Of a stretch of DNA of 64,000 nucleotides, positions 2,666-62,950 are shown piece after piece. A model generated the notes under the pieces. That model was not told the origin of the DNA. It saw only the letters and a list, made by a program, of their open reading frames with translations, and did no database searches. The stretch's first letter is position 1, and each line of letters starts with the position of its first letter. The stretch is from an uncultured Christensenellaceae bacterium (GTDB taxonomy: Bacteria > Bacillota > Clostridia > Christensenellales > UBA1242): NCBI GenBank assembly GCA_910587225.1, contig CAJULT010000001.1, positions 42,753-106,752 of the forward strand, in the 5' to 3' direction. A program made the translations under genes and the position numbers.

Positions 2666-3181
2666 ATGGAATTTAAAGACAAACCATTAAAAGAGAATTA
2701 TTTTGCAATTGAAATGAAGTTAGTTGGTCGCAAGATGCAGGTAAGTCTTGAAGGTGGGATTTGCAAAATTAATGACCTAAGAGAGACTGACAAAAATCGT
2801 AAAATTTTAATATTGAATCATGACCTAATTACAGTTTGTAAGGAAGGACTGGCGGGTGGTGGCTATTTTGATAGCAAAAGACCAGAGTTTGAATATGATG
2901 AGTTTTGCGACATGTTTATTGAAATTGCAGCCAAAGCTGAAGGTGTGAGAAAAAGAGCTGGTCGCCTTACAAATGACTATGTTTTGGAAAATAAGAGTGC
3001 GGCAAGAAAATTTGGGGAAGTGATGGACTCATTTGCTATGGCAGAGCCTGCCATGCAGGAAGCAACTGAGCGGATGAAGGAGCTCGCCCACCTTTTAATA
3101 GATCAGGAATTGCAAAGACGGGAAGAGGAAGATTATAAAAGCTTTATAGACAATTTTGTCCTTGAAGAAGACGAAGATTAA
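2666..3181 (+). CDS. Hypothetical acidic protein (171 aa), tandem paralog B
   Basis: Starts 2 nt after the previous stop. The C-terminal REEEDYKSFI motif parallels paralog A. Confidence 0.7.
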   Translation: MEFKDKPLKENYFAIEMKLVGRKMQVSLEGGICKINDLRETDKNRKILILNHDLITVCKEGLAGGGYFDSKRPEFEYDEFCDMFIEIAAKAEGVRKRAGRLTNDYVLENKSAARKFGEVMDSFAMAEPAMQEATERMKELAHLLIDQELQRREEEDYKSFIDNFVLEEDED

Positions 3182-3188
3182 ATAAATT

Positions 3189-3209
3189 AGCGCGAGTTAG
3201 CGCTTTTTT
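3189..3209 (+). terminator. Intrinsic terminator candidate
   Basis: AGCGC-loop-GCGCT followed by a T6 run. Confidence 0.5.
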
Positions 3210-3258
3210 ATTGCGTTTTTAATGTAAAAATGATATATTTTCATTAGAGGTATTTATT

Positions 3259-4104
3259 TTGAAAATTGCAAATGGTTGGAAGGATTATAAAGTTTTAGCG
3301 ACTGGTGATGGTGAAAAGCTTGAGAGGTGGGGAGAGTATACTTTGCTTAGACCCGACCCTCAGGTGATTTGGCATGCAGCTAGCCCGCTTGAAAAATGCA
3401 AAGGACTTGATGCTCATTACAGGCGAGAAACAAGCGGCGGCGGACATTGGGACATTATTCGTAAAATGCCAGAACAGTGGACAATTTCATGGCAGGGCAT
3501 TAAGTTTATAATTAAGCCTATGGGTTTTAAGCACACGGGGCTTTTCCCTGAGCAAGCTGTAAACTGGGAAAAGATGCTGAGCCTAATAAAAAATGCAAAT
3601 AGACCTATAAAAGTATTAAACTTATTTGCTTATACTGGGGCTGCATCCATTGCTTGTGCGAAAGCGGGGGCGAGTGTAACTCACATTGATGCTAGCAAAG
3701 GTATGGTGCAGCGTGCGAAAGAGAACGCTGAAATCAATGGCATTTCAAACATACGCTTTATTGTAGATGATTGTGAAAAATTTATTGAGCGCGAGATAAG
3801 GCGGGGGAACTTCTATGACGCGATTATAATGGACCCACCAAGCTATGGCAGAGGACCAAATGGCGAAATGTGGAAACTTGAAGACAAGCTTTTTGATTTC
3901 GTTGCTTTGACTAAAAAGGTACTTTCAAACAAGCCGCTATTTGTACTTATAAGTTCTTACACGACAGGCTTGCAGGCGAGTGTGCTTACAAACATACTTT
4001 CCCTAAATTTTGGAAAGGGAAATATTGACAGTGATGAAATTGGGCTTCCGACAGAGGAAGATATTGTGCTTCCGTGCGGGGCAAGGGGGATGAAAATATG
4101 GTAA
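3259..4104 (+). CDS. Class I SAM-dependent (RlmI/RlmK-like) RNA methyltransferase
   Basis: TTG start after an AGAGG RBS. Motifs: FKHTGLFPEQ, the SAM-binding LFAYTGAASIA...HIDAS, and IMDPPSYG. Confidence 0.75.
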   Translation: MKIANGWKDYKVLATGDGEKLERWGEYTLLRPDPQVIWHAASPLEKCKGLDAHYRRETSGGGHWDIIRKMPEQWTISWQGIKFIIKPMGFKHTGLFPEQAVNWEKMLSLIKNANRPIKVLNLFAYTGAASIACAKAGASVTHIDASKGMVQRAKENAEINGISNIRFIVDDCEKFIEREIRRGNFYDAIIMDPPSYGRGPNGEMWKLEDKLFDFVALTKKVLSNKPLFVLISSYTTGLQASVLTNILSLNFGKGNIDSDEIGLPTEEDIVLPCGARGMKIW

Positions 4105-7474: not shown

Positions 7475-8200
7475 ATGAAAAATATTATATTCAAAATAAA
7501 GTTATTTTTTTATAATCTATTTCATAAAAGGAGTTTATTAAATACTAAAAATATTGTCTGCTATCTTATAAGCGAGCAGCTGCCAAACCCGCTAACGCTT
7601 GAAGAGGAGGAGGCACTTTTAATTGCGCGTGATAATGGAGATGCAACGGCTGTTGAAAAACTGATAGAACATAACCTTAGACTTGTTATTTTTATTTCAA
7701 AACGCTTTAAAGGTCCTAACATTGAAGCGGAGGACATTATTTCAATAGGGTCTATTGGGCTTATCAAAGCAATCAAGACATTTAAGATTGATAAAAATAT
7801 CAGGCTTGCAACTTACGCCTCGCGCTGCATTGAGAATGAAATTTTGATGTATCTTAGAAAAGCTAATAAGAGCATGAATGATTTAAGTCTTGACAGGCCA
7901 ATTCATACAGACGGCGAGGGTAACGAGCTTTGCCTAAGCGACATTATTCCAATAGACGGAGATATAGTTGAGCAGGGCATTGACAAGGCGGAAGATAAGA
8001 AGGTGTTATTTGAACTTTTGGAAGGACTTAATGTACGCGATCAGGAAATTATGATAATGCGCTATGGGCTTGGCGGGCAGGACGAACTTACTCAAAAAGA
8101 AATTGCCGAAAAGATGAATATAAGTCAAAGTTATATTTCTCGTCTTGAAAAAAGAATTCTTGTGCAGATGAGAAAGAAATACGAGCGTCAAGTCCTTTAG
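7475..8200 (+). CDS. sigE: Sporulation sigma factor E (pro-sigma-E)
   Basis: Sigma-70 regions 2-4, an N-terminal pro-sequence and spoIIGA-sigE-sigG synteny. Confidence 0.9.
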   Translation: MKNIIFKIKLFFYNLFHKRSLLNTKNIVCYLISEQLPNPLTLEEEEALLIARDNGDATAVEKLIEHNLRLVIFISKRFKGPNIEAEDIISIGSIGLIKAIKTFKIDKNIRLATYASRCIENEILMYLRKANKSMNDLSLDRPIHTDGEGNELCLSDIIPIDGDIVEQGIDKAEDKKVLFELLEGLNVRDQEIMIMRYGLGGQDELTQKEIAEKMNISQSYISRLEKRILVQMRKKYERQVL

Positions 8201-8348
8201 ACTGCAATAAAACTTCGCGATCGTAATTTTTTCAAAATTACTTGCTGCGTTAACTGTAAAACGCCCCAAAACAGTCATTTAGGTTTACTAAACTCCTGCT
8301 TTGGGACATTTTCCGAGCCTTGCCTCGCTGGTTTTCTTGCAGTCTAAA
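8196..8348 (+). promoter_or_regulatory. Nested hairpin structure in the sigE-sigG spacer
   Basis: A perfect 12-bp outer stem, TTTAGACTGCAA (8196-8207) with TTGCAGTCTAAA (8337-8348), encloses two hairpins at 8223-8241 and 8265-8305. Confidence 0.6.
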
Positions 8349-8461
8349 ACTGCTTATATTGTCTTTTTTTAATATTTTTTAGCGTTTTTTAGCACATTTG
8401 CCTTACTTATGAATTAAAATATCAATTTCGCCAACAATATCCCATGAATAATGGAGGTAGT

Positions 8462-9235
8462 ATGGCGTCTAAAGTTTTTATTGCGGGTGTGGACACTTCC
8501 CGTTTGCCGAAGCTTACCAACGATGACATTGCTGCGCTTATGAAAAAAGTTAAACAGGGGGACGAGTATGCGCGCTCCTGCTTTGTGGTGGCAAACCTGA
8601 GGCTTGTACTATCTGTCGTTCATCGCTTTGGCGGGCGTGGTGACCGCGCTGACGATATGTTTCAGGTGGGGTGCGTCGGGCTTATGAAGGCAATCGACAA
8701 TTTTGATGAAAGCCTTAATGTTAAGTTTTCCACCTATGCGGTGCCTATGATTATAGGTGAAATTAGAAGATACCTCCGTGACAACAATTCGGTGCGGGTA
8801 TCAAGAAGTCTACGCGACATTGCGTATCGCGCCCTTCAAGCAAAAGACGAACTTTCTAAGGCAAGTTTTAAAGAACCCAGCCTTGACGAAATAGCCGAGG
8901 CAATTGGCGAGCCTTTAAAAACGGTTACTTTTGCACTTGACGCGATTAGTGAAACTGTGTCACTTAGCGAGCCAGTTTATAGTGACGGAACGGACACCAT
9001 TCATCTTCTCGACCAGATTGCAGATACCGCACAGACGGACGAGCGCTTGCATGAAAAGATTTCTATTGAGGACGCTATTAAAACACTTTCAAAGAGGGAA
9101 AAAGAAATTCTTCTAATGCGCTACTATATAGGTAAAACGCAAATGGAAGTGAGCGAGGAAATAGGTATAAGTCAGGCGCAGGTATCTAGGCTTGAAAAAA
9201 ATGCGCTTTCATCAATTAAACAATTTTTAGAGTAA
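8462..9235 (+). CDS. sigG: Sporulation sigma factor G
   Basis: Sigma-70 family protein located after sigE. ATG at 8462 after a GGAGG RBS. Confidence 0.9.
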   Translation: MASKVFIAGVDTSRLPKLTNDDIAALMKKVKQGDEYARSCFVVANLRLVLSVVHRFGGRGDRADDMFQVGCVGLMKAIDNFDESLNVKFSTYAVPMIIGEIRRYLRDNNSVRVSRSLRDIAYRALQAKDELSKASFKEPSLDEIAEAIGEPLKTVTFALDAISETVSLSEPVYSDGTDTIHLLDQIADTAQTDERLHEKISIEDAIKTLSKREKEILLMRYYIGKTQMEVSEEIGISQAQVSRLEKNALSSIKQFLE

Positions 9236-9274: not shown

Positions 9275-9556
9275 GTGGAAACTTCATTTTTGGAATTACG
9301 TTGTAAAGAGGTTGTTAATGTCCTAGACGGGCGAAGGCTTGGGCATATTGTAGATATGGTGCTGGATTTGCCGTCAGGGCAGATGTTGGGTTTTGTAGTG
9401 CCGGGTGAAAAGACATTTTGGAATGTGTTTAAAGGCGGCTCACAGCTTTTTATTCCTTTTGGATGCATTGTAAAAATAGGGGAAGATACAATCTTAGTGC
9501 AGCTGGGCGGGCAAGCACCAAATCCGTATATCTTGTCTAACGACAATAAAAAATGA
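9275..9556 (+). CDS. ylmC: YlmC/YmxH-family sporulation protein (PRC-barrel)
   Basis: ELRCKEVVNVLDGRRLGHIVDMVLD is typical of the YlmC/YmxH family. Lies downstream of sigG. Confidence 0.8.
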   Translation: METSFLELRCKEVVNVLDGRRLGHIVDMVLDLPSGQMLGFVVPGEKTFWNVFKGGSQLFIPFGCIVKIGEDTILVQLGGQAPNPYILSNDNKK

Positions 9557-9612
9557 CGCTTGGGCGTCATTTTTTAGTGAATAGTGAAAAAGTGAAAGAG
9601 TGAAAAAGTTAA
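9548..9612. repeat. Direct repeat copy 1: bidirectional terminator hairpin plus a 4 x 8-bp AGTGAAnn array
   Basis: aaaaaatgacgcttgggcgtcatttttt followed by agtgaat agtgaaaa agtgaaag agtgaaaa agttaagg. Confidence 0.85.
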
Positions 9613-9629
9613 GGACAGCCGTTGGCTGT

Positions 9630-9866
9630 TTAAATTTCGGGACATATCAATTCGAGTATGTACTTGATAACTTGCTTTTGATTTTCAATCATAAAATCAA
9701 AGTCCAAAAAATCATAATCATGTAATGCGTGACGCTGTTCTTTATTCAACATATTACATAATTTTGAAAAACTTTTCTCTCGTTCGCTTAAACCTTCGCT
9801 ATCTTTCACATATCGTTCTTCATACGCTCGAAATAATAGTTCAGTCACTACATCTTTATTTTCCAT
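9630..9866 (-). CDS. Hypothetical small protein (78 aa)
   Basis: ATG at 9866 is preceded by AAGGAGGTGA. The longer ORF-track version begins inside the repeat. Confidence 0.65.
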   Translation of the reverse strand: MENKDVVTELLFRAYEERYVKDSEGLSEREKSFSKLCNMLNKEQRHALHDYDFLDFDFMIENQKQVIKYILELICPEI

Positions 9867-9954
9867 TTTATCACCTCCTTTGTTTGCATTATACATTTGT
9901 TTTTGAAGAAAAAAGCCGATATTCGTTATAAAGTATGAAAAATTTTTAGAAAAG

Positions 9955-10022
9955 AAAAAATGGCGCGTGGGCGTCATTTTTTTAATGAATAAATGAAAGA
10001 ATGAAACAATGAATAAATTAAG
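9955..10022. repeat. Direct repeat copy 2: terminator hairpin plus a 4 x 8-bp AATGAAnn array
   Basis: aaaaaatggcgcgtgggcgtcattttttt followed by aatgaata aatgaaag aatgaaac aatgaata aattaagg. Confidence 0.85.
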
Positions 10023-10069
10023 GTCGGGAAACGCCTAAAAACAGGCGAAGCTTAATAAAAGACGAAGTC

Positions 10070-10847: not shown

Positions 10848-12930
10848 AGTAAATTTAGTTGGAAATCCTAACACTGGAAAAACCACTCTATTTAATCTGC
10901 TTACCGGCGCACATGAGCATGTAGGCAACTGGCATGGAGTGACGGTAGAGGAAAAGGTTTCTCGTTACAAATTCAAAAACGAGGAGATTGAGCTTTGTGA
11001 CCTTCCCGGACTTTATTCACTGACGCCGCTAAGCTATGAGGAAGAAGTCGCCGCAGATTTCATTTTAAAAAATCCCGATAGGCTTATTGTCAACATCTGC
11101 GACCAGAGCAATTTGCAGCGGAATTTATACCTTACCCTTTCTCTTTTGGAAAGGGGGTGCAAGGTTATCTTGGCGGTAAATCAAATTGAAAAAAGACCGC
11201 TATGCAAAATTGACTATGGGAAACTTTCTCAGCTTTTAGGCATTCCTGTTGTTGCAATCAACGCAGAGCGAAAGGAGGACGGGGAAAAGCTTAACCAAAA
11301 GATTTTGGGGTTTAAAGGGGGAACGAAATATAATCTTCCCTATCTTAACAAACTCCACCTTAATGAAATTCCAAAAGTTTCGGATGAGGCGAGTGATTTT
11401 TATAAAATAAAGCTACTCGAAGGGGATGAAAAGATTTGCGCTAAGTTTTCATCAAGTATTGCTCCGCAACCTGAAAAGGTGGCAGATGCTAGGTATGACT
11501 ATATCGATCAAATTATGAAGCTTGTCAGCGGCAAGCGGGAGCGGGTTTACGGACAAAGTAAGTTTGATAAAATTCTTATGAACAGGTTTTTGGCATTTCC
11601 TATCTTTTTAGGGATGCTTGCACTAGTATTTTATTTAACCTTCTTTTCTTTTGGGGCGTGGCTTAGTGACCTGATGAGCTGGCTGCTTGAAACATGCATT
11701 GGACAGCCGATATTAAATCTTTTAACTTCTCATCTGGGGCAGTCAAGTTGGGTTTGCGGACTTTTTGAAACGGCGGTTATTGGCGGGGTGGGTTCAATTC
11801 TCAGTTTCCTGCCGCAAGTGGCGCTTCTGTTTTTCTTCCTTTCAATACTAGAAGATAGTGGTTATCTTGCCCGTGTCGCTTTCGCGATTGAAGATATACT
11901 TGGCAAGGTTGGGCTTTCAGGAAAGAGTGTCTATACACTTTTAATGGGGTTTGGCTGCTCGACAACTGCGGTACTTACCGCTCGTAACATGGAAGACAAG
12001 AATGCCAAAATAAAAACTGGACTTTTGACGCCGTATATGAGTTGCAGTGCAAAGTTTCCTATTTACTCTGTGCTAGGTGGGGCGTTCTTCGGTGCGAGCA
12101 ATATTCTAGTTATTTTAGGGTTATATCTTTTAGGCGTTGTAGTCGCGCTTATTATCAGCTTAATTTTTGAAAAGACGGTTTTAAAGAGCAAAGAGCAGAA
12201 CTTTATTCTTGAATTTCCTCCATATCATGCAATGAGTGCAAAGCGTGTGGCGAGAGTTTTATTTGACAATGTTAAGTCCTTTGTATTGCGAGTAGGCTCG
12301 CTGATTGTAGCCATGAATGTTATAGTTTGGGTGCTTGGCAATTTTACTTTTACCTTTAAATACATTCCGTCAAGTGGTGGAGTGAGCATACTTGAAACTT
12401 TGGGAAAAATATTTGCGCCTATATTTATTCCGCTTGGTTTTGGCAGCTGGGCGCCAGTATCTGCCTTGCTTGCTGGGCTGGTTGCAAAAGAGGTTATCAT
12501 ATCTTCCCTTGCTATGTTTAACGGAGCAAGCGATGCGGGAGCGGGAGCTATTGCAAATTCCTTTCACGACCCGGCAAGCGCCGCCTATTTTGCGTCGGGT
12601 GCGAGCGTAATAAGCTATCTTGTTTTCTGCCTTTTATACTTTCCTTGTCTTGCAACCACATCTGTTCTTTCAAAAGAGATAGGCAGAAAGTGGACGGCTA
12701 TTGGAATTATAGTCGAGCTTATCGTTGCATATATCACCGCATGGGTGGTTTATACGCTTGCTCGCACTATTGAAAGTTTTGGAGCGATGAAAGTGCTATT
12801 AACGCTTTTAGGGATTTTCGTGATAATCCTTTCAGTTATTTTTGTGTGGAGGCGTCTTAAAAAGAAAAAAGCTTGTCCTTTTTCGTCAAAATGTAAGAAA
12901 AATTGCGCGAAAGCCAAAAAAGAAAAATAA
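10840..12930 (+). CDS. feoB: Ferrous iron transporter FeoB
   Basis: N-terminal G-domain GNPNTGKTTLFN and a polytopic membrane domain. Has a Cys/Lys-rich C-terminal tail. Confidence 0.92.
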   Translation: MIKVNLVGNPNTGKTTLFNLLTGAHEHVGNWHGVTVEEKVSRYKFKNEEIELCDLPGLYSLTPLSYEEEVAADFILKNPDRLIVNICDQSNLQRNLYLTLSLLERGCKVILAVNQIEKRPLCKIDYGKLSQLLGIPVVAINAERKEDGEKLNQKILGFKGGTKYNLPYLNKLHLNEIPKVSDEASDFYKIKLLEGDEKICAKFSSSIAPQPEKVADARYDYIDQIMKLVSGKRERVYGQSKFDKILMNRFLAFPIFLGMLALVFYLTFFSFGAWLSDLMSWLLETCIGQPILNLLTSHLGQSSWVCGLFETAVIGGVGSILSFLPQVALLFFFLSILEDSGYLARVAFAIEDILGKVGLSGKSVYTLLMGFGCSTTAVLTARNMEDKNAKIKTGLLTPYMSCSAKFPIYSVLGGAFFGASNILVILGLYLLGVVVALIISLIFEKTVLKSKEQNFILEFPPYHAMSAKRVARVLFDNVKSFVLRVGSLIVAMNVIVWVLGNFTFTFKYIPSSGGVSILETLGKIFAPIFIPLGFGSWAPVSALLAGLVAKEVIISSLAMFNGASDAGAGAIANSFHDPASAAYFASGASVISYLVFCLLYFPCLATTSVLSKEIGRKWTAIGIIVELIVAYITAWVVYTLARTIESFGAMKVLLTLLGIFVIILSVIFVWRRLKKKKACPFSSKCKKNCAKAKKEK

Positions 12931-15106: not shown

Positions 15107-16582
15107 ATGGAAAAATATGAAATCTATGATGATATTAAATCCAGAACAGGCGGCGATATATATGTCGGAGTGGTAGGCCCAGTACGCGTTGGAAAGTCTA
15201 CCTTTATTACCGAATTTATGAAAAAGCTTGTTCTTCCAAATATCACCGAGAAAAATGCAAAAGAAAGAACTGTTGATGAGCTTCCTCAATCAGCAGACGG
15301 AAAAACTATCATGACTACTCAGCCGCATTTTGTGCCAAACGAGGCGGTAAAAATCAAGGTTGCTAACGCGGACATGAGAGTAAGAATGATTGACTGCGTT
15401 GGGTATCTTGTAAGCGGCGTTATGGGACATACCGAAAACGAGAAACCACGCCTTGTTAAAACTCCTTGGTCTGAAAAGGAAATGCCTTTTGAAGAGGCGG
15501 CGGAACTTGGCACTAAAAAGGTAATGCAGGAACATTCAACTGTTGGCCTTGTAGTGACAACTGACGGTAGCGTTACCGAGCTTGCAAGAGCAAACTATGT
15601 GGAAGCTGAGGAGAGAGTTGTAGCAGAAATGAAGGCGACAGGCAAACCATTTGTTATGGTGCTTAACACTAAAAACCCAAGCTCTGCTGAAACTAAGAAA
15701 CTAGCAAATGGGCTTAGTGATAAGTACGATGTGCCAGTAGTTGCAGTTGACGCGCTTGACCTTAAAGAAGGGGATATTGACAAGATATTTGAAAAAATGC
15801 TTGGCGAGTTTCCTATTCAATCTATTCGCGTTAAAATGCCAGAGTGGCTTAGAGCGCTTTCTTATGATGATGAGATTATCACCGAAATTGCAAACGAAAT
15901 GCGCAAAATGGGAAGCTCAATCACAAAGTTAAGTCAAATGGACAAAAATCAGTTGGCTTTTACCGAAAGTGCAGCGTTTGACCCTATCACTTTCTCTAAT
16001 ATTGAACTTGGCGAAGGTATCGTTAAATTCAATGTAATACCAAAGGATGACTTATTCTATCGCGTGCTTAGCAAAGAGTGCGGTTATGAAATTAAAGATG
16101 ACTACTGCCTTGTAAACTATATTAAAGAGCTTGCAATTGCTAAACTCGAATATGACAAAATTAAGTTTGCGCTTGACCAAGTTAAAGAAACTGGCTATGG
16201 CATTGTTGAGCCTCGTCGCGAAGAGTTTGTACTTGGTGAACCTGAAATTATCAAGCAGGGTAGCCGTTTCGGCGTTAAGCTTAAAGCGTCAGCACCATCT
16301 CTTCACATTATGCGTGTAGATGTTGATACTGAGGTTACTCCACTTGTGGGAACTGAAACTCAAAGCCAAGACCTTGCTAAAAATCTTATGGAACAGTTTG
16401 AGGCTAACCCTGAAACTATCTGGAACACAAATATTCTCGGTCGCAGCCTAGACAGCCTTATCGGCGACAATATTGCGTCTAAGATAGTTATGATGCCTGT
16501 TGAGGCACAAAACAAGATGCGCAAAACTTTGGGCAGAATTATTAACGAGGGGAAAGGCGGAGTAATATGTATATTACTATGA
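15107..16582 (+). CDS. spoIVA: Stage IV sporulation protein A (spore coat morphogenetic ATPase)
   Basis: N-terminal Walker A VGPVRVGKSTFI and 491 aa length. The SpoIVA-like sequence runs throughout. Confidence 0.93.
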   Translation: MEKYEIYDDIKSRTGGDIYVGVVGPVRVGKSTFITEFMKKLVLPNITEKNAKERTVDELPQSADGKTIMTTQPHFVPNEAVKIKVANADMRVRMIDCVGYLVSGVMGHTENEKPRLVKTPWSEKEMPFEEAAELGTKKVMQEHSTVGLVVTTDGSVTELARANYVEAEERVVAEMKATGKPFVMVLNTKNPSSAETKKLANGLSDKYDVPVVAVDALDLKEGDIDKIFEKMLGEFPIQSIRVKMPEWLRALSYDDEIITEIANEMRKMGSSITKLSQMDKNQLAFTESAAFDPITFSNIELGEGIVKFNVIPKDDLFYRVLSKECGYEIKDDYCLVNYIKELAIAKLEYDKIKFALDQVKETGYGIVEPRREEFVLGEPEIIKQGSRFGVKLKASAPSLHIMRVDVDTEVTPLVGTETQSQDLAKNLMEQFEANPETIWNTNILGRSLDSLIGDNIASKIVMMPVEAQNKMRKTLGRIINEGKGGVICILL

Positions 16583-16583
16583 T

Positions 16584-16758
16584 GCGGGCGGCAACTAGGA
16601 TTTTTTAACGCCAGTACGCCTTGCGGCTAGTGGCTAAAATCCGTTTCCCCCACATGCCCCTTTTAGCCCCCTTGAAAATTTCGTACCGACAATTTTCTGG
16701 CGGGGAGAGGTGTTCAACAAATTTTATAGCCGCGCAAAGCGCTTCCCCTATAAAATTT
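16584..16758 (+). repeat. Structured intergenic element, copy A (candidate ncRNA or 3' UTR element)
   Basis: Aligns over about 175 nt with 41794-41968. It has four helices, three of which carry compensatory changes between the copies. Confidence 0.8.
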
Positions 16759-16776
16759 ATTGACTTAATAAAAAAT

Positions 16777-16802
16777 AAAAGCAGCCATGAGGCTGCTTTT
16801 TT
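16777..16802. terminator. Bidirectional intrinsic terminator
   Basis: AGCAGCC-atga-GGCTGCT flanked by A and T runs. Confidence 0.7.
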
Positions 16803-16947
16803 ATCGCTGAAAAATAATAAGTTGAAATAAAGTATCATTTTTATTTTTGATTAAGAAATAGTTTGGAAATCTTTCAGCATTTTTTAATAAATTTTCTTCT
16901 GTAAGTACATTTAAATATTCTGTCAAAAATTCCATGATTTCGTTCAT
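16801..16947 (-). CDS. Hypothetical 48-aa protein divergent from the XRE regulator
   Basis: ATG at 16947 is preceded by GGAGGTAAAAAT. No recognisable family. Confidence 0.45.
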   Translation of the reverse strand: MNEIMEFLTEYLNVLTEENLLKNAERFPNYFLIKNKNDTLFQLIIFQR

Positions 16948-16973
16948 ATTTTTACCTCCGACACTATTATTCC

Positions 16974-17019
16974 ATGCCTGTGGGCATAATTGCAAATAAT
17001 TTATGCCTTTTGGTATAAA
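16974..17019. promoter_or_regulatory. Two palindromic operator candidates overlapping the xre promoter
   Basis: ATGCCTGTGGGCAT (16974-16987) and ATGCCTTTTGGTAT (17003-17016). The promoter is TTGCAA-18-TATAAA with TGG upstream. Confidence 0.45.
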
Positions 17020-17044
17020 CTTTTTTCGCATAAAGGAGAGAAAT

Positions 17045-17248
17045 ATGAGTAAATTTGCAGAAAGAGTTAAAGAATTACGAGTTGAGAAAGGGTTGTCGCA
17101 AGCGGAACTAGCAAAAGCAATAGGTGTAACTCAATCAATAGTTGCTAGATGGGAGGCTGATTTGCGTATACCTAAAATGGATAGCATTATTGCTTTGACA
17201 GAGTTTTTCAAAATTTCTAGTGATTACTTGATAGGTATTGTTGATTAA
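17045..17248 (+). CDS. XRE-family helix-turn-helix transcriptional regulator (67 aa)
   Basis: LRVEKGLSQAELAKAIGVTQSIVARWE is a canonical HTH_3 sequence. ATG at 17045 after an AAGGAGAG RBS. Confidence 0.85.
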   Translation: MSKFAERVKELRVEKGLSQAELAKAIGVTQSIVARWEADLRIPKMDSIIALTEFFKISSDYLIGIVD

Positions 17249-17276
17249 AAAAAGAAGGCAGTTGCCTTCTTTTTTA
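17247..17276. terminator. Bidirectional terminator between convergent genes
   Basis: aaaaaaAGAAGGCagttGCCTTCTttttt. Confidence 0.7.
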
Positions 17277-17693
17277 TTCGTCTTCGCCTGCGTCCTGTGG
17301 CATATATTCAAATTGTAATTCTTTTGGACTGATGATTTGGGCTTTCTCAGTTTCATTATGAATAGGCAAGAGTGGGGTTTCAAGCGTTTTGCACCAGCCG
17401 ATAATTTTTTTGCCATTACTTTCAGTTTGGCTGTTTTCGTTGAATTCTTCGTTCGGTACGAACTCGCCAACCTTGTAATATTCTTGGTTATATTCAGGTG
17501 AGCGGCGTTCCAGCTTTTTGCCTTTAAAGTAGAAATTCTCTACATCGACATCATAAAGTTTGAAAGAGTAGGTTTCTGTGCCGTACAATTTGAAATTTTT
17601 CTTTACCCACTCAATGTCATGAGTAGGTATTTCTGTTGTTCTTTCACTGCATCCGATATCAGCAATTTTTTCGTGAATATAATGTTTAACCAT
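17274..17693 (-). CDS. Hypothetical cytoplasmic protein (139 aa, acidic C terminus)
   Basis: AGGAGA RBS 8 nt upstream of the ATG at 17693. No family recognised. Confidence 0.7.
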   Translation of the reverse strand: MVKHYIHEKIADIGCSERTTEIPTHDIEWVKKNFKLYGTETYSFKLYDVDVENFYFKGKKLERRSPEYNQEYYKVGEFVPNEEFNENSQTESNGKKIIGWCKTLETPLLPIHNETEKAQIISPKELQFEYMPQDAGEDE

Positions 17694-17715
17694 GATTCTT
17701 ATCTCCTTTTTATAT

Positions 17716-17743
17716 AGTATAACATGCGGGGGGGGGATGTCAA
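17716..17743 (-). promoter_or_regulatory. Sigma-A promoter TTGACA-16-TATACT with a C9 tract in the spacer
   Basis: The minus strand reads TTGACA t CCCCCCCCC gcatgt TATACT. The G9 run is at 17728-17736 on the plus strand. Confidence 0.6.
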
Positions 17744-17819
17744 GTCTGTTTCTAAAAAAACAGCCAACGGCTGTTCACTTTTATGCACGCGCTGCAAGGC
17801 GAGCGCATAAAGTATTATT

Positions 17820-17909
17820 ATGAAAGAGAACAACAAATTTAAAATCATTTGCATTAAAGTGCCTAAATGGCTAAGCTATATCTTACGCAAATTACAAAAA
17901 AGCAACTAA
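17820..17909 (+). CDS. spoVM: SpoVM-like small sporulation peptide (29 aa), absent from the ORF track
   Basis: MKENNKFKIICIKVPKWLSYILRKLQKSN resembles the remembered B. subtilis SpoVM sequence MKFYTIKLPKFLGGIVRAML. Adjacency to rpmB matches B. subtilis synteny. There is no clear SD. Confidence 0.6.
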   Translation: MKENNKFKIICIKVPKWLSYILRKLQKSN

Positions 17910-17920
17910 TTTCAGGGCAT

Positions 17921-17944
17921 AAAAAAGGACTGAAAAGTCAGTCC
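17921..17944 (-). terminator. rpmB terminator
   Basis: GGACTG-aaaagt-CAGTCC, with a T6 run on the minus strand. Confidence 0.6.
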
Positions 17945-17956
17945 TCAAACCTTTCT

Positions 17957-41315: not shown

Positions 41316-41789
41316 ATGCCAAGAAGAAATAGTGCCGTTAAGAAAGATGTTCTTCCTGATCCAATTTACAATTCAAAAGTTGTTACTAAACTTGTTAACC
41401 AAGTTATGTTGAGTGGTAAAAAGGGTCTTGCACAGAGAATTGTTTACGGAGCATTCGACATTATTAAAGAAAAAACTGGCGCGCAGCCACTTGATGTTTT
41501 CAATGCAGCTGTTGAAAATGTTAAACCAGTGCTTGAAACCAAGTCTAGAAGAGTTGGTGGTGCAACCTACCAAGTTCCAATGGAAATCAGACCTGAAAGA
41601 CGTCAAACACTTGCAATTCGCTGGATTGTAGACTTTGCAAGAAAGCGCAGCGGTGAACGTACAATGGACGGACGCCTTGCAGGCGAAATCATGGATGCTT
41701 ATAATAACACAGGCGCATCTATTAAACGTCGTGATGAAATGCACAGAATGGCGGAAGCTAATAAGGCTTTTGCACACTTTAAGTGGTAA
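41316..41789 (+). CDS. rpsG: 30S ribosomal protein S7
   Basis: [20 protein letters not shown]...AHFKW. Confidence 0.97.
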
Positions 41790-41793
41790 TGTC

Positions 41794-41968
41794 GCGGGCG
41801 ACAACTAGAATTTTAACGCCATACGCCTTGACGGCTAGTGGCTAAAATTCGTTTTCCCCACGTGCCCCTTTTAGCCTTGCTGAAAATTTCCGCTGGACAA
41901 TTTTCTAGCAAGAGAAGTTGCTAACAAATTTTTGAGGTCGGGCAAAGCCCTTCTTCCATCAAAAATTT
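41794..41968 (+). repeat. Structured intergenic element, copy B (between rpsG and fusA)
   Basis: Homologous to 16584-16758, in the same orientation as the flanking genes. Confidence 0.8.
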
Positions 41969-42020
41969 CTTAGCGGATTAAAGGGTTTTAATCAATCTAA
42001 TTAAAAGGAAGAATAAATTT

Positions 42021-44096
42021 ATGGCTACAAACCTAGAATTAACCAGAAATGTTGGTATTATGGCGCACATCGACGCTGGTAAAACTACAACTACTGAGCG
42101 TATCTTGTATTATACCGGTAAAAGTCATAAGATAGGTGAGGTTCATGACGGCGCTGCTACCATGGACTGGATGGCTCAGGAGCAGGAACGTGGTATTACC
42201 ATTACTTCCGCTTGTACCACTTGTGAGTGGAAAGGCCACAAAATCAACATTATCGATACCCCGGGACACGTTGACTTCACAATCGAAGTTGAGCGTTCAC
42301 TTAAAGTCCTTGACGGGTCTGTTCTTGTGCTATCAGCGCGCGACAAAGTTCAGCCTCAAACTGAAACTGTTTGGCGTCAAGCTACAAGATATAAAGTTCC
42401 TATCATCATATATGTAAATAAGATGGATAGAGATGCTGCCGATTTCTTCGGCTGCGTACAGTCTATTAAAACTAGACTTAAAACTAATCCGCTTCCAATT
42501 CAAATGCCTATTGGAGCAGAGGATAACTTCCGTGGAATTATCGACATTCTTACCATGAAAGCTGAAATATATAAAGATGACATGGGTAAAGAGATTGAAA
42601 TTACCGAAATTCCTGCTGAGCTTAAAGCAGAAGCTCAAAAACTTCATGACGAAGTTATTGAAAAAATCGTTGAAACTGATGACGCTCTTCTTGAAAGATA
42701 CTTTGAAGGGGAAGAAATCAGCCTTGACGAACTTAAAAAGGCAATTCGTAAGGCTACAATCAGCAAAGCTCTTACACCAGTTCTTTGCGGATCATCTTAC
42801 AAGAACAAGGGTGTTCAAATGCTTCTTGACGCTATGGTAGACTATCTGCCAAGCCCACTTGACATTGAACATATTACTGGTATTAACCCAGATACAGGGG
42901 AAGAGGAAAGCCGCGCTCCAAGTGAGACTGCTCCATTCTCTGGTCTTGCATTTAAGATTATGACTGACCCTTATGTTGGTGGACTTACCTTCTTCCGTGT
43001 TTACTCTGGTAAACTTATGGCTGGAAGTTATGTTTACAACTCTAACAACGGCAAGACTGAACGTGTTGGTCGACTAATTCGAATGCACTCAAATCAACGT
43101 CAGGAAATTTCTGAGGTTGGCGCTGGTGACATTGCCGCAATCGTAGGTCTTAAAGATACTATCACAGGACACACTCTTTGTGATGAAAAACATCCTATCC
43201 AACTTGAAAGTATGGAGTTCCCTGACCCAGTTATTCAGCTCGCTATTGAGCCTAAAACTAAGGATATGCAGGAAAAAATGAGCCTTGCGCTTGCAAAACT
43301 TATGCGTGAAGACCCTTCTTTCCGTGTTACTACAAGCCAGGAAACTGGACAAACTCTTATCGCCGGCATGGGCGAACTTCACCTTGAAATCATTGTAGAT
43401 CGTCTTCTTCGTGAATTTAAGGTTGAGGCAAACATCGGTGATCCACAAGTTTCTTACCGTGAAACAATCAGAAAACCTGTTAAAGCTGAGGGTAAATTCA
43501 TCCGTCAGAGCGGTGGTAAGGGACAATATGGACACTGCGTAATTGAAATGGAGCCACTTCCAGCAGGAACTGGTTACGAATTCGTAGATAAGACAGTAGG
43601 TGGATCTATTCCAAAAGAATATATTCAACCTGTTAACAATGGTATTCAAGAAGCTTCTCATAACGGTGTACTTGCCGGCTATGAAACTGTTGACTTTAGA
43701 GTAACCGTTGTTGACGGCTCATACCACGAAGTTGACTCTTCTGAAATGGCGTTCAAGATTGCCGGATCTATGGCATTCCAAGACGCTGCTAAGAAGGCAG
43801 ACCCAGTAATCTTAGAGCCTATTATGAAGGTTCAAGTTGAAGTGCCTGAAGACTATCTTGGTACTGTTATGGGTAACCTTACTTCAAGAAGAGGTATGCT
43901 TACTGGTAACGAAACTAAGGCGGACGTTCAAGTAATCAACGCTGAAGTTCCACTTGCAAATATGTTCGGTTATGCAACAGACCTCCGTTCTCAAACTCAA
44001 GGTCGTGGAACATTTACTATGGAGTTCTTGAAATATCAAGAAGTTCCACGTTCTATCGCAGAAGATATTATTGGCGCTAGAGCTAAAAAGAACTAA
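42021..44096 (+). CDS. fusA: Elongation factor G
   Basis: [23 protein letters not shown], 691 aa. Confidence 0.97.
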
Positions 44097-56290: not shown

Positions 56291-56605
56291 ATGGAATTTA
56301 AGAAAGAACTAGGAGAAATGCTCCTAACATTATCAACTAAGTTAGTTGAAGAAGAAATGAAAACTGAAAATGATACAGAATTGAAATCGCTTTATGAACA
56401 AGCAAAAGAACTTCAAAGCAAATTTGAGAAATATGCCTCAAGTTTAGAGCCAAGCAAAGAAACATTTAGCAAGTTAATGAATTTGGACATTACAATTACA
56501 AATATTCATCAATCACTGAATGAGAAGATTAGTGCTTCAAGAAAGTCTATTATGAAAGATTTTGTTGAAGATGTTGTAAAGGAAGGTGATGAAGATGGAG
56601 AATAA
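56291..56605 (+). CDS. Phage hypothetical coiled-coil protein
   Basis: GAGGAAAAATT RBS. 104 aa, helical and acidic. Confidence 0.6.
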   Translation: MEFKKELGEMLLTLSTKLVEEEMKTENDTELKSLYEQAKELQSKFEKYASSLEPSKETFSKLMNLDITITNIHQSLNEKISASRKSIMKDFVEDVVKEGDEDGE

Positions 56606-57395
56606 AGACCTTGTTGTAGTTGACAACCAAAACGAAGTTGTTGCACAAAATGATTCATTTGATATTCTTGGCAACGAAACAATTTTAATGTTGGCAGATC
56701 AAGCAGAAAAAAGAATCGAAGCAATGAATAAAATCATGAACGCTTCTTTGAAAATGACAACAGTTAATGACTGGGTGCTTATTGGTGGTATTCCATATCT
56801 TCAAGAGAGTGGAGCAACAAAGGTTGCAAGACTTTTCGGAATCTCTTGGCAGATTGAAGAGCCAAAGAAAGAAACAAGAGCCGATGGACACTACACAATC
56901 ACATATAAAGGAAAATTCTCTCTTGCTGGTGCAACTATTGAGGCAGAAGGTGCAAGAAGCAGTTTTGACGACTTTTTCGCATCTGCTGGAAAGGACAAAG
57001 ATGGTAATCCAAGACCAAGAAAGACACCAGATGAGATTGATATGAGAGATGTTAAGTTGGCAGCATATACAAACTGCATCAATAACGGAATTAAGAGAAT
57101 ACTTCCGGGATTGAGAAACCTTACTGTTGAAAACCTTGCTGAAGGTGGTATTGATACAAAAAACCTTAAAGGCTATTCATTCAAAGGAGAAAGCAAAAAA
57201 GCAGCATCCAAAGTTGAAGGAAGTGGCTTTAAATGTGAGCATTGTGGAGCAGAGATAAGTTCTGCTGAAGCATCTTACTCTAAATCTTACTATGGCAAAG
57301 AACTTTGTAGGAAGTGCCAAAAACTTGCAAAGGAGGGTGGATTAGATGACAGCAGAGAAACTGAATCAACTGATTCTGGAAACCAAACAGAATAA
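56586..57395 (+). CDS. Putative phage recombination (single-strand annealing-type) protein with a C-terminal zinc ribbon
   Basis: Lies directly upstream of the PD-(D/E)XK nuclease. CEHCG...CRKC. Identity is tentative, and the start could be 56595. Confidence 0.35.
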   Translation: MMKMENKDLVVVDNQNEVVAQNDSFDILGNETILMLADQAEKRIEAMNKIMNASLKMTTVNDWVLIGGIPYLQESGATKVARLFGISWQIEEPKKETRADGHYTITYKGKFSLAGATIEAEGARSSFDDFFASAGKDKDGNPRPRKTPDEIDMRDVKLAAYTNCINNGIKRILPGLRNLTVENLAEGGIDTKNLKGYSFKGESKKAASKVEGSGFKCEHCGAEISSAEASYSKSYYGKELCRKCQKLAKEGGLDDSRETESTDSGNQTE

Positions 57396-58266
57396 AATTA
57401 AAGTTTATCCTTGCAATAATTTAAGAGCATCTAATGTTGGACATCCTTGCGAAAGATATTTGTATCTTTCAATTAAGAACTGGGAAGATAAAACACCACA
57501 TGATGCAACACTTCAGAGCATTTTCGATTTAGGAAACTCTATTGAAGATTATGCAATTAAATCTTTGAAAGAATCTGGTCTTGAAGTGTTTACACCAACC
57601 GAAAGAAGTTGGAAAGTGGAAAATCCACTTATTACTGGAAGAGAAGATCTCCGTATCAAAGAAGAAGATGGACAACTTTATCCAGTTGAAGTTAAAGGCT
57701 TATCACCACAGGAATATGACAAACTCAATTCTATTGAAGATTTTTATAAGTCTAAAAAATATTATGTTCGAGCATATCCTTCACAACTTCTTGTTTACAT
57801 GTGGAAGTTTGGAAAAGAAAAAGGTTATTTCTGCCTTGTAAACAAACTTACAGGACAAATTAAACTTATTGAAGTAGCCTTTGACTATGACAAAGCAGAT
57901 GCACTTCTTAAGAAAGCAGAGAGAATCTATGATGCTATCAAAAAGAATGATTACAGTGAACTTGCGACTTGTGATGATTGCTCAATGTGTGAAAGGTGTG
58001 ATTTAAGACATTGCTGCACAGCAAGACATGAGCCAATCGAAGCAGAAATTGACGATGGCACGATTGAAGAACTTATCAATCGAAGAAGCGAACTTAAATC
58101 AAGTGCTGATGAATACAACGAGATAAATGACAAAATCAAACAAGCACTTGGGGAAAGAAAGAAGGTCATTGCTGGAAATTATCTTGTTACTATTACAGAG
58201 ACCGAAAGAAAGCCTTATACAGTGCAAGGTGGCATTTCACAGCGTTTGAATATCAAAAAGTTATAG
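57346..58266 (+). CDS. PD-(D/E)XK (Cas4/RecB-like) exonuclease with a Cys cluster
   Basis: GREDLRI...YPVEVKG nuclease motif, with an N-terminal Cys plus a C-terminal CDDCSMCERCDLRHCC. Confidence 0.65.
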   Translation: MTAEKLNQLILETKQNKIKVYPCNNLRASNVGHPCERYLYLSIKNWEDKTPHDATLQSIFDLGNSIEDYAIKSLKESGLEVFTPTERSWKVENPLITGREDLRIKEEDGQLYPVEVKGLSPQEYDKLNSIEDFYKSKKYYVRAYPSQLLVYMWKFGKEKGYFCLVNKLTGQIKLIEVAFDYDKADALLKKAERIYDAIKKNDYSELATCDDCSMCERCDLRHCCTARHEPIEAEIDDGTIEELINRRSELKSSADEYNEINDKIKQALGERKKVIAGNYLVTITETERKPYTVQGGISQRLNIKKL

Positions 58267-58275
58267 AGGTGGAAC

Positions 58276-58704
58276 ATGGACATCACATTTGAAGTTCTTG
58301 GAAAACCTCAAGGAAAAGCAAGAGTTAAAGTAACTCAAAGAAATGGCTTTGCTCTTGCTTACACTCCTGATAAAACAACAAATTATGAAAATTTAATCAA
58401 ACTTTGTTACATGAATTGTAAACCACATGGAGATCTTACACATGAGCCAATTTCAATGACGATTAGGGCAGATTATGAGATTCCAAAGAGTTTCAGTAAG
58501 AAGAAGCAAATCGAGGCTTTAAGTGGCAAATTAAGACCTAGAACAAAGCCAGATTTGGACAATATTGCCAAGATAGTTTGTGATGCGTTAAATAAGGTCG
58601 CTTACTATGACGACAACCAAGTCATTGATTTGCATGTAACAAAGTTTTACTCAAATCAACCAAAATTGGTTATTCGTTTGAAAGAGGTGAAAGATGAAAA
58701 TTGA
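58276..58704 (+). CDS. rusA: RusA-family Holliday junction resolvase
   Basis: GKPQGKAR...YTPDKT...KPDLDNIAKIVCDALN...YYDDNQV. Confidence 0.85.
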   Translation: MDITFEVLGKPQGKARVKVTQRNGFALAYTPDKTTNYENLIKLCYMNCKPHGDLTHEPISMTIRADYEIPKSFSKKKQIEALSGKLRPRTKPDLDNIAKIVCDALNKVAYYDDNQVIDLHVTKFYSNQPKLVIRLKEVKDEN

Positions 58705-59086
58705 TTTAAGAAAACCTATTGCAGAGATGAGCGAAGAAGAAAAAGCAGAGTTCTATGAGTTCATTCAAATATTGGCTGAGAAATGGGCTTCAAAGGAAAG
58801 TTTGCAACTTGAATTTAAAACCGATAGCGAAAGAGCAGTTCGCCGAAGAATTGAGATGTTGAGACGAAAAGAAAATATCCCTTATATTTCACATTCAAAG
58901 CGTAAAGGTTATAAAGTTGCAAAGTATATGGAAGATTATCCAGATGCTAAAAAATCTTCTCTTGAAATGCACAGTAGAGCCGAAAAAATATTAGAGTCAG
59001 TAAAACCTATTGATGAGTTCTGTCGGCTTTGTGAGGAAGGAAAAATCAAGTCTAGGGAGGAAGTGTCATGGCAAGAAAAAGAATGA
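58694..59086 (+). CDS. Phage hypothetical protein (130 aa)
   Basis: Overlaps both neighbouring genes. No family recognised. Confidence 0.55.
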   Translation: MKIDLRKPIAEMSEEEKAEFYEFIQILAEKWASKESLQLEFKTDSERAVRRRIEMLRRKENIPYISHSKRKGYKVAKYMEDYPDAKKSSLEMHSRAEKILESVKPIDEFCRLCEEGKIKSREEVSWQEKE

Positions 59087-59898
59087 TTGATCCTCAAATC
59101 TGGGCGAGTGAAGATTACTCTGAGTTAAGCAATTTTGCACAACTTGTTTGGATAGGCTTATTTTCACAAGCAGATGATGAAGGTCGTGGCAAGAGTAAAC
59201 CTGCTTATTTGAAATCAATTCTTTTTCCTTACAGCGAAGATATTAAACTTGTAAAAAAAGTAGATTCTGCACTTAATGAAATCGCTAAAATTATGTCAAT
59301 TACATTCTATCAATTAGACAATAATGAGTATTATCAACTTGAAAATTGGTCTAAATGGCAGAAGGTGGATAAGCCTCAAGCAAGTAAAATTCCACCTTTT
59401 TCAGAAGGTGCAAAGATTATTCGTAAATCATTCGCCGAACATTCGCCGAATAGTAGTCGAAAGGTTAGCGAACAATCGGCAACCAGTCAACTATCATTCT
59501 CGCCTAATAAGAATAAGAAAGAGAATAGAATAGAACAAGAAATAAAAGAGAACGAGAATATACAGGCGTGTGCGTGTGATTTATTAAATAAATTTACTTT
59601 TCAAGAGTTAATAGGCACTTGCGAAAAGTTAAGTCCTGTTATCTTCCAGAGACACAAAAAAGATCCTAATGGCGATTATAGGCTAGGGCAAATCTACGAA
59701 GAAGTGTCAGTTAATTCGACTTTGGAAGATATTGAGAAACTTCTTGCTCATGCGAACAAAACTTACATTGTGCAGCCAAAGTATAACACCCTTGACTTGT
59801 GTTGGGTGCTTAACAATCAGAAGGCTGTAATGTCGGCTAAAGAACTTACAACCATTGAAAACAATTCTCAACAAAGAGACTATGATAGCGAGGATTAG
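59068..59898 (+). CDS. Putative phage replication initiator / replisome organizer
   Basis: Lies immediately upstream of the DnaC-like loader. N terminus RMIDPQIWASEDYSELSNFAQLVWIGLFSQADDEGRG. Confidence 0.45.
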   Translation: MARKRMIDPQIWASEDYSELSNFAQLVWIGLFSQADDEGRGKSKPAYLKSILFPYSEDIKLVKKVDSALNEIAKIMSITFYQLDNNEYYQLENWSKWQKVDKPQASKIPPFSEGAKIIRKSFAEHSPNSSRKVSEQSATSQLSFSPNKNKKENRIEQEIKENENIQACACDLLNKFTFQELIGTCEKLSPVIFQRHKKDPNGDYRLGQIYEEVSVNSTLEDIEKLLAHANKTYIVQPKYNTLDLCWVLNNQKAVMSAKELTTIENNSQQRDYDSED

Positions 59899-59901
59899 CC
59901 T

Positions 59902-60696: not shown

Positions 60697-61109
60697 CATT
60701 TGACGAAGCCTATAGAACTTACAAAGAATTAAAACGCCAAGAGTTTAATCTTCAACTGAAGAAACAAGAGTTGCAGGAATCTTGTGGTTATCCTCAAGGC
60801 AGAGATTATTCAGATACACCAGTTTCTCACAGTGTTTCAACTCCTGCTGCACTTGTGTATGTAATGCGACTAGAAGAAATTGAGAAAAAAGAAAAAGAAC
60901 TTGATGCAACAATGGAATGCGTTAGAAATGACATTCAAAGATTTCTTGACAAGATAGACAATGACGATATTAGAAGAATCTGCTCAATAAAACTTTTCAC
61001 AAAAACAAGTTGGAAAAGAATAGCAGCAGACCTAGATAAAAGTTATTCACATGTTAGGAGTTTGTTTTATCAAGGCATGACATTGTTGCACACTATGGAG
61101 GAAATATGA
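60693..61109 (+). CDS. Phage sigma-70 region-4-like transcriptional regulator (RinA/DUF1492-like)
   Basis: C-terminal HTH-like segment TSWKRIAADLDKSYSHVRSLFYQGMTLL. Position is consistent with a late-gene activator. Confidence 0.45.
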   Translation: MTFDEAYRTYKELKRQEFNLQLKKQELQESCGYPQGRDYSDTPVSHSVSTPAALVYVMRLEEIEKKEKELDATMECVRNDIQRFLDKIDNDDIRRICSIKLFTKTSWKRIAADLDKSYSHVRSLFYQGMTLLHTMEEI

Positions 61110-61696: not shown

Positions 61697-61708
61697 AAAG
61701 GAAAAATC

Positions 61709-62941: not shown

Positions 62942-62950
62942 AGGTGGGCA

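Follow-up and report, generated by a model that had tools for sequence, protein, structure and literature searches.

What is a strongly folded sequence of less than 200 nt doing directly behind the stop codons of genes at two unrelated loci in an uncultured Christensenellaceae bacterium? We address this question in a 64-kb stretch of contig CAJULT010000001.1 (assembly GCA_910587225.1)—the window, whose positions serve as coordinates here—in which an element that we name W occurs twice, copy A (W-A) adjoining spoIVA and copy B (W-B) lying between rpsG and fusA. With a probability of roughly 0.55, we consider W to be a lineage-specific, low-copy, non-coding structured insertion element, of the class that includes repetitive extragenic palindromes and bacterial interspersed mosaic elements (REP/BIME), bcr, BOX, and ERIC. 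The case is built from the two copies themselves, from the way their differences preserve a fold, and from the contents of the same sites in related species.

Two copies with a preserved fold

The best limits are 16581–16766 for W-A and 41790–41975 for W-B, both on the + strand and about 186 nt long, with an uncertainty of about 6 nt either way. Between 16584–16761 and 41794–41971, blastn reports 78.6% identity over 182 columns (E = 1.2e-33); W-A is also recovered by nhmmer, and covariance model R1 scores the copies at 212.7 and 211.9 bits, respectively. Across 180 aligned positions there are 33 substitutions (16 transitions and 17 transversions), a divergence of about 18%, together with six indels occupying 12 gap columns, so that an earlier note on this DNA was right about the two aligning copies and slightly generous in calling their alignment almost gapless. 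Conservation peaks in a 45-nt core (W-A, 16624–16668, +, CGGCTAGTGGCTAAAATYCGTTTYCCCCACRTGCCCCTTTTAGCC; counterpart in W-B, 41832–41876, +), where 42 positions are invariant and each of the three differences is one side of a compensated pair. The element has a G+C content of 45–48%, compared with 38.6% for the window, and its + strand carries more C than G, opposite to the local skew.

Both copies begin 0–2 nt past a stop codon, on the same strand as the flanking genes. W-A lies in the 3′ untranslated region (UTR) of spoIVA (15107–16582, +; Pfam SpoIVA_ATPase, SpoIVA_middle, and SpoIVA_C), filling the space between the TGA stop codon (16580–16582) and a bidirectional intrinsic terminator hairpin at 16777–16800 (AAAAGCAGCC-atga-GGCTGCTTTT). 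W-B takes up the 5′ 80% of the 231-nt spacer between rpsG (ribosomal protein S7; 41316–41789, +; Pfam Ribosomal_S7) and fusA (elongation factor G, EF-G; 42021–44096, +), a spacer with no promoter-like or terminator-like site. The sense orientation that the earlier note had reported for both copies therefore holds with respect to spoIVA, rpsG, and fusA alike; the + strand holds almost every gene of the window, over the whole of which GC skew is positive. From this position, the strand of the genes, and the lack of an intervening promoter or terminator, we infer that both copies are transcribed in sense as part of the host mRNAs. Neither copy contains a sigma-70-like promoter or an intrinsic terminator of its own, and we rejected an identity as attenuator or terminator, there being no G+C-rich hairpin with a U tract inside the copies.

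W is non-coding. All six frames of copy B are interrupted by stops, and the lengths of the indels between the copies are not multiples of three, which upholds the earlier statement that the open reading frames (ORFs) across W-A are not conserved as protein. Nor does W fall into a known RNA family: Infernal cmscan against Rfam, a check proposed in the earlier note, gave no match to it. At the gathering threshold Rfam 15 has no match anywhere in the window, in E-value mode nothing overlaps 16581–16700, and the weak E-value matches cover only the terminator at 16770–16840; no known RNA family emerged from cmscan of the sister loci either, and the Y elements described below have no Rfam match. No tRNA-like fold was seen in W, and ARAGORN finds no tRNA or tmRNA gene in the window. 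The whole 64 kb is thus without a tRNA gene or a gathering-level Rfam match, although the str operon is present.

Each copy folds into three independent stem-loop domains set side by side. In the minimum free energy (MFE) fold of W-A, domain 1 (16582–16655, +) is a long irregular hairpin that includes the helix called S1 in the earlier note; its basal helix takes in the final base of the spoIVA stop codon, and three of its pairs are changed on both sides relative to W-B. Domain 2 (16656–16713, +) is a hairpin with the apex S3 (GAAAATT-TCG-tac-CGA-c-AATTTTC) above a variable outer stem, which reads CCCC/GGGG in A and CTTGCT/AGCAAG in B. Domain 3 (16714–16763, +) corresponds to S4, a hairpin with 16-nt arms (TCAACAAATTTTATAG/CTATAAAATTTATTGA) and an inner GCGC-aaa-GCGC, in which four pairs (helices 5 and 6) are double-changed and which an inverted-repeat search also recovers. 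The matching domains of the W-B MFE fold span 41791–41865, 41868–41917, and 41920–41974 (all +), the last again found by the inverted-repeat search. S1, S3, and both parts of S4, along with the compensatory changes listed for them in the earlier note, are confirmed. A fourth helix that it had drawn, S2 (GGCTAAAA/TTTTAGCC), is not: because S2 uses the AAAA of the S1 3′ arm, S1 and S2 are mutually exclusive, and imposing S2 makes A less stable by 17.2 kcal/mol and B by 11.0 kcal/mol. With a penalty of 11–17 kcal/mol and a pair probability of about 0, S2 was rejected both as a part of the fold and as a switch.

The differences between the copies respect this structure. RNAalifold, run on the + strands of the two copies, gives 62 consensus pairs, with 10 double-changed, eight changed on one side and still pairing, and none broken—counts that, coming from two sequences only, are suggestive and not a statistical proof of covariation. 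When the 3′ partners were slid by 1–3 columns as a control, 38–58% of cells paired and one or two double changes appeared, and in a column-shuffle control 1 of 500 trials attained the observed values. Folded as + strands, A and B reach an MFE of −63.3 and −63.5 kcal/mol, respectively (z = −4.4 and −4.75 against dinucleotide shuffles). We set these values against a mutation null in which one copy received 33 random substitutions at the observed transition share (1000 trials per strand): the mean MFE was −45 to −47 kcal/mol (standard deviation about 6) versus about −63.4 kcal/mol observed, an expected loss of about 16 kcal/mol, and mutated copies were as stable as the real partner in 5–7 of 1000 trials on the + strand and in 0 of 1000 on the − strand. 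These results support the proposal of the earlier note that selection acts on the fold, which has been kept well beyond what is expected of a decaying duplication.

Which strand carries the selected fold is less easily said. The reverse complements fold slightly better (−68.9 kcal/mol for A and −71.0 kcal/mol for B), and the minus-strand consensus has 59 pairs, 11 double changes, and an energy of −47.4 kcal/mol, versus 10 double changes and −39.8 kcal/mol on the + strand. The 61–62 pairs common to both strands are all Watson–Crick; the + strand has eight G-U cells, mostly where a U-run faces a purine run in domain 2, and the − strand has one G-U kept in both copies, at the base of domain 1. 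This asymmetry of G-U against A-C discriminates neither strand, as both fold equally well with equal covariation. Of the earlier suggestion of a selected RNA or single-stranded DNA (ssDNA) fold, the selection is supported, and either strand, as RNA or as ssDNA, may be its carrier. We infer that the single-stranded form of W is what selection acts on.

Distribution among relatives

The species is known from metagenome-assembled genomes (MAGs; GCA_948561125.1, GCA_949037005.1, and others) and from Logan and ENA contigs. The contigs of this species that were read carry W-A and W-B unchanged or almost so, and strains differ by less than 0.1%. MAG GCA_949037005.1 (L004) shows six differences from the window in 6.4 kb, two of which fall within the base of W-B domain 1, at 41795 and 41798 (C>A and G>A), one of them disrupting a G-C pair; they could be true polymorphisms or collapsed reads of another copy.

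Sister species tell a different story. At the spoIVA site of four of them (SpoIVA 79–86% identical), W is absent, and the stop codon, TAA in place of the TGA of the window, runs directly into the terminator. Cutting 16581–16766 out of the window restores this arrangement (CTA TAA TAAAAAATAAAAGC-hairpin) without requiring that any target sequence was duplicated; the cut could also be placed 2–6 nt away, and, given the roughly 6-nt ambiguity of the limits, the rebuilt empty site calls for a target duplication of 0–2 nt. Between rpsG and fusA, the sister lineages examined (EF-G 91–95% identical) likewise lack W, and their spacers of 191–454 nt hold other structured, relatively G+C-rich inserts, which we designate X, Y, and Z. 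The distribution of W is therefore not conserved between close relatives: none of the sister species read carries it at either orthologous site. Covariance model R1 detected no remote homologue in about 286 kb of window and sister loci (about 220 kb of it sister DNA), which means that W is no ancient RNA conserved in this clade.

The inserts that occupy these sites in its relatives are diverse. X is a G+C-rich structured insert of about 170 nt (L028, 9687–9870; L032, 367–545; L034, 2878–3056; L053, 9640–9830). In the closest relatives it sits directly 3′ of the rpsG stop codon, the slot of W-B in the window, and a Y element's 3′ end comes next in L032, L034, and L053, suggesting nested insertion or replacement. 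Z, inserted immediately ahead of the fusA ribosome-binding site and some 200 nt long (L032, ~603–806; L034, ~3114–3317), has 7/8 terminal inverted repeats (GGACTGAC...GTCTGTCC) and TAA/TAA flanks, with short matches elsewhere in sister loci (L028, 19118; L029, 16272; L035, 16273); by its sequence it looks like a true MITE, a miniature transposable element with inverted repeats.

Family Y has eight full-length members and a truncated one, spread over the window and at least four sister lineages, at sites that include the rpsL leader, the rpsG-fusA spacer, three tandem copies on metagenome contig L038, and window positions 8197–8346. It forms one nested hairpin whose closing stem differs in every copy and has no Rfam match; 18 of its 33 pairs covary across the eight copies, around an invariant CTTAG-N6-CTAAG hairpin and an invariant GAGCCTTG motif. 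The window copy (8197–8346, +) lies between sigE (7475–8200) and sigG (8444–9235), and the 5′ arm of its closing stem (TTTAGACTGCAA) contains the sigE stop codon. A scan of metagenomes for the Y core motif returned a single contig. On L038, the S10-Clostridia ribosomal protein leader is matched weakly at 403–488 (−), with 20.1 bits where the gathering threshold is 35.1, 3′ of a good promoter-like sequence and directly 5′ of the three tandem copies; Y elements may thus also lie inside another ribosomal-protein operon leader.

Local alignment of W with X, Y, and Z gave z-scores of −1.2 to 1.3, that is, no similarity beyond chance, and Y model R2 has no match on W; we accordingly rejected W as a diverged X, Y, or Z. 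Two further structured features were seen near these slots in sister contigs. In L053, the rpsL-rpsG spacer is 182 nt long, versus 20–40 nt in other species, and holds a long hairpin element directly after the rpsL stop codon (8984–9165; closing stem CAATTTTGAAA/TTTCAAAATTG), and in L024 a short tandem array of AACATGCAAGAA units lies just past the sister spoIVA terminator (~11530–11600). Judged from these sequences, small structured elements evidently come and go in precisely these slots within the clade.

The earlier note had proposed collecting more copies, and the searches made for them with blastn and nhmmer in the window and with model R1 in the sister loci yielded none; a direct-repeat search, too, found no third copy in the 64 kb. 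Searches of larger collections gave no true match. The pattern GTGGCTAAAA-N13-21-CCCTTTTAGCC has only two chance matches (Acidoferrum and Leptolyngbya) in 185,579 species genomes, a stricter core pattern has none in JGI metagenomes, four W patterns in IMG/VR returned only seed-length chance matches, and blastn found no W match in phage and plasmid collections. A six-frame chimeric protein query, seeking spurious ORFs over W copies among 5.8 billion proteins, gave nothing at E ≤ 10. One observation points the other way. Logan contigs from three samples (L016, L017, and L018) all stop at window position 16695, inside W-A; de Bruijn assemblers end a contig where a k-mer is shared with another locus, and copy B differs from A in the stretch ~16665–16695. 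The shared contig ends therefore hint at a third copy, closer to A, in the same or a co-resident genome.

The surroundings of the two copies also vary. W-A neighbours genes for an XRE-type helix-turn-helix (HTH) protein and proteins of no known kind, and the interval from spoIVA to rpmB (16801–17950) holds different small genes in each species compared (L019, L022, L023, and L024), among them XRE-type HTH, Fic, and unknown 125–162-aa proteins; because this interval varies between species, W-A borders on a variable islet. The 25 kb that separate the copies are arranged otherwise in sister contigs. They consist of core genome (ligA, pcrA, comEC, holA, rpmB, and fakA), and the copies were therefore rejected as attL/attR of an integrated element. 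Elsewhere in the window, a tandem duplication (9542–10024, about 408 nt) takes in terminator-like hairpins (GACAATAAAAAATGACGCTTGGGCGTCATTTTTT; copies 88% identical) and adjacent A-rich stretches. Toward its 3′ end (~56500–64000) lies a run of genes—for a PD-(D/E)XK nuclease, an IstB/DnaC-like ATPase, an MT-A70 methyltransferase, and a protein resembling phosphoadenosine phosphosulfate (PAPS) reductase—that is probably prophage-like.

Insertion element, functional RNA, or chance copy

If W is an inserted element, it would have reached its slots by at least two insertion or copying events in the species lineage, or by one entry and subsequent copying. Surviving sites would be the non-disruptive ones only, between stop codon and terminator or between stop codon and the next ribosome-binding site, and W would be carried passively in the spoIVA 3′ UTR and in the polycistronic rpsL-rpsG-fusA-tuf mRNA. 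The fold may have been retained since the single-stranded form matters, whether for propagation of the element itself or for the host mRNA. Effects on the host would probably be those documented for REP and bcr elements, namely shielding upstream mRNA from 3′ exonucleases and uncoupling the fates of upstream and downstream cistrons, and W possibly hinders termination at the abutting stop codon. Of the two identities floated in the earlier note, the dispersed, expressed repeat of the bcr1 kind is the better supported, given the insertion relative to sister species and the other structured families in the same slots, with dispersal past two copies hinted at by the contig breaks only. Its other suggestion, a new cis-acting RNA, fares worse: with W missing from the sister species, it is improbable that the element serves spoIVA or fusA in a conserved cis-regulatory capacity.

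The anatomy of W narrows the kind of element. Terminal inverted repeats are absent, the ends (GATGCGGGCGG... and ...TTTATTGACTT) not being complementary and only internal hairpins being found, which sets W apart from MITEs. It also departs from the REP/BIME definition, with 186 nt, three different hairpins, and two copies versus a repeated palindrome of ~20–40 nt. No 5-bp flanking direct repeat is evident at either copy, a result to be read with limits ambiguous by about 6 nt and two copies only, and no transposase gene lies within the window. A template and variable repeat pair of a diversity-generating retroelement was rejected, the differences between A and B being compensatory and not adenine-specific.

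Several points tell against an insertion element. Two copies only have actually been seen, and neither the core-motif scans of genomes, metagenomes, and viruses nor blastn against phages and plasmids produced a true further one. In the absence of inverted repeats, a clear target duplication, or a transposase in the window, mobility is deduced from presence and absence alone, and copies 25 kb apart could equally reflect a single local copying event. Compensation this clean, together with the invariant core, resembles a functional RNA more than a decaying selfish repeat. Expression, finally, is read from position.

The last but one of these points leads to the rival that survives best, which we nonetheless regard as unlikely: that W is an RNA with a dedicated function, whether as a cis-acting element of the mRNA or as a processed small RNA, with two paralogues under selection for fold and core. 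None of the 62 consensus pairs is lost, and 10 of them persist by way of double changes; the few differences in the core are each half of a compensated pair; the eight one-sided changes on the + strand retain pairing through G-U, all on the transcribed strand; the position of W would guarantee co-transcription with its host genes; and just two copies came to light despite several searches. Yet W is missing from both orthologous sites and from about 220 kb of sister DNA, so that the function of such an RNA would have to be species-specific, and it would serve host genes that are functionally unrelated. The sister rpsG-fusA slot holds non-homologous elements instead, the minus strand, equal in covariation, folds no less well, the pairs shared by both strands are Watson–Crick throughout, and W brings no promoter or terminator with it.

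We find it somewhat harder to credit that W arose by a one-off copy between the 5′ part of the rpsG-fusA spacer and the spoIVA 3′ UTR, through illegitimate recombination or template switching, after which the hairpins were kept. Such an origin would suit two copies only, 25 kb apart on the same strand, with similarity beginning exactly at the stop codon in both. The end of W-B (TTTCTTAGCG) moreover resembles the end of the Y-type insert at the same sister site (TTTCTAAGCG), so the copied unit may include older spacer sequence, but this 10-nt resemblance is weak and overall similarity between W and Y is nil (z 0.2–0.6). A divergence of about 18% with six indels, where strains of the species are less than 0.1% apart, implies that the copies have long been separate or come from sources that had already diverged, and the contig breaks hint at a further copy that is like A and unlike B around 16665–16695.

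Within the insertion reading, how W might move is a matter for a tentative sub-hypothesis with rather low odds: a non-autonomous ssDNA element mobilised in trans by an HUH (Y1) transposase, in the manner of IS200/IS605 palindrome-associated transposable elements (PATEs) or of REP with RAYT. The anatomy of W fits such hairpin-recognising ssDNA transposition better than it fits a classical MITE, on account of the missing inverted repeats, the lack of a clear duplication (the rebuilt empty site, CTA-T|AA-TAAAAAATAAAAGC, needs none), stable hairpins at both ends, almost purely Watson–Crick helices foldable on either strand, and the shared orientation of the copies. Since GC skew is positive across the window, the + strand is the leading-strand sequence, and both copies are on the strand that equals the lagging-strand template; both left junctions read AT|G. 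Against this, the end hairpins (domains 1 and 3) are unlike each other, where IS200/IS605 ends usually carry similar ones, the right ends of W-A and W-B are not conserved, and no tnpA or RAYT gene lies in the 64 kb. The left flanks, compared as PATE targets, share AT only, and with n = 2 strand and target preferences mean little.

Equally low odds attach to a broader idea, in which W, X, and Y together stand for a class of structured RNA modules not described before, interchangeable with one another and placed after stop codons, acquired by a mechanism that uses neither inverted repeats nor target duplication, possibly by RNA- or ssDNA-templated means, and required by the rpsG-fusA slot. That slot would then always need a module, and different lineages would have filled it with non-homologous ones; a strong fold at the stop codon might aid control of termination or recycling, uncouple rpsG from fusA, or protect the mRNA 3′ end. 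An artefact of chance similarity or chimeric assembly, for which nothing speaks beyond the metagenomic origin of the genomes, is excluded for practical purposes by an E-value of 1e-33 and by the identical recurrence of both copies in independent MAGs and in Logan and ENA contigs from many samples.

Should W be the inserted element that we favour, the str operon spacers of this clade would be turnover hot spots for such elements, and W would account for the contig breaks and spurious ORF calls at both loci. It also cautions that covariation between two copies does not prove a dedicated regulatory RNA. The importance of W would grow if its placement after the stop codon affects SpoIVA or EF-G output, or if a copying mechanism that uses neither inverted repeats nor target duplication proves to be new.

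Comparison with known repeat families

The closest parallel by description is bcr1, one of the Bacillus cereus group repeats bcr1–bcr18 and an intergenic, non-coding repeat of about 155 bp that is present in many copies flanked by 5-bp direct repeats, whose multi-stem-loop fold is kept by compensatory changes and whose genomic distribution is not conserved (PMC3184786, PMC3446304). The bcr repeats are transcribed within UTRs and operon spacers (PMC3184786, PMC3446304), and bcr3 correlates with a longer mRNA half-life (PMC3446304). W resembles bcr1 in size, location, presence and absence pattern, and compensatory changes; it differs in its host, an uncultured member of the Clostridia, in having two copies, and in lacking evident direct repeats, the comparison being one of descriptions. 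The title of a paper cited in PMC3184786 reports bcr1 as specific to the B. cereus group.

Like the REP/BIME elements of Enterobacteria and Pseudomonas, W consists of G+C-rich extragenic hairpins in transcribed 3′ UTRs and spacers whose occupancy varies between related species; unlike them, it is a 186-nt composite of three dissimilar hairpins, REP units being single palindromes of ~35 nt that occur in hundreds of copies and are linked to RAYT. A REP within ~15 nt of a stop codon reportedly stalls terminating ribosomes and lowers upstream expression (Liang, Rudd and Deutscher 2015). The geometry of W, with a basal helix 0–2 nt past the stop codon, would fit such stalling. REP/BIME can, in addition, stabilise upstream mRNA (PMC3184786).

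Size, intergenic location, and strong folding are shared as well with pneumococcal BOX, RUP, and SPRITE, enterobacterial ERIC/IRU, and the Correia elements of Neisseria, MITE-like families of 100–200 nt that are co-transcribed and influence the stability or the processing of mRNA (PMC3184786). Terminal inverted repeats occur in RUP, Correia, and ERIC, most with target duplications, and W shows no such repeats and no clear duplication. In this last respect W is like the IS200/IS605 PATEs, which lack terminal inverted repeats and target duplications, carry hairpins at both ends, and insert strand-specifically, as the same-strand copies of W might suggest; this likeness is one of compatibility only, as the left and right hairpins of W are dissimilar, no conserved target or right-end tetranucleotide is visible in the two copies, and the window holds no transposase. 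Nearest in habitat is family Y, which shares with W the clade, the slots after stop codons and in the str operon, covarying stems, an invariant core, and the lack of an Rfam match, but has no similarity to it in sequence or model and forms one nested hairpin where W has three side-by-side domains.

Taken together, W works like bcr1, REP/BIME, BOX/RUP, and ERIC elements without being demonstrably a member of any of these families. If our reading is right, it would be one more small structured intergenic repeat family, from an uncultured lineage of gut Clostridia in which none has been described, and most likely a new family of a known class of element—real, but fairly ordinary in such company.

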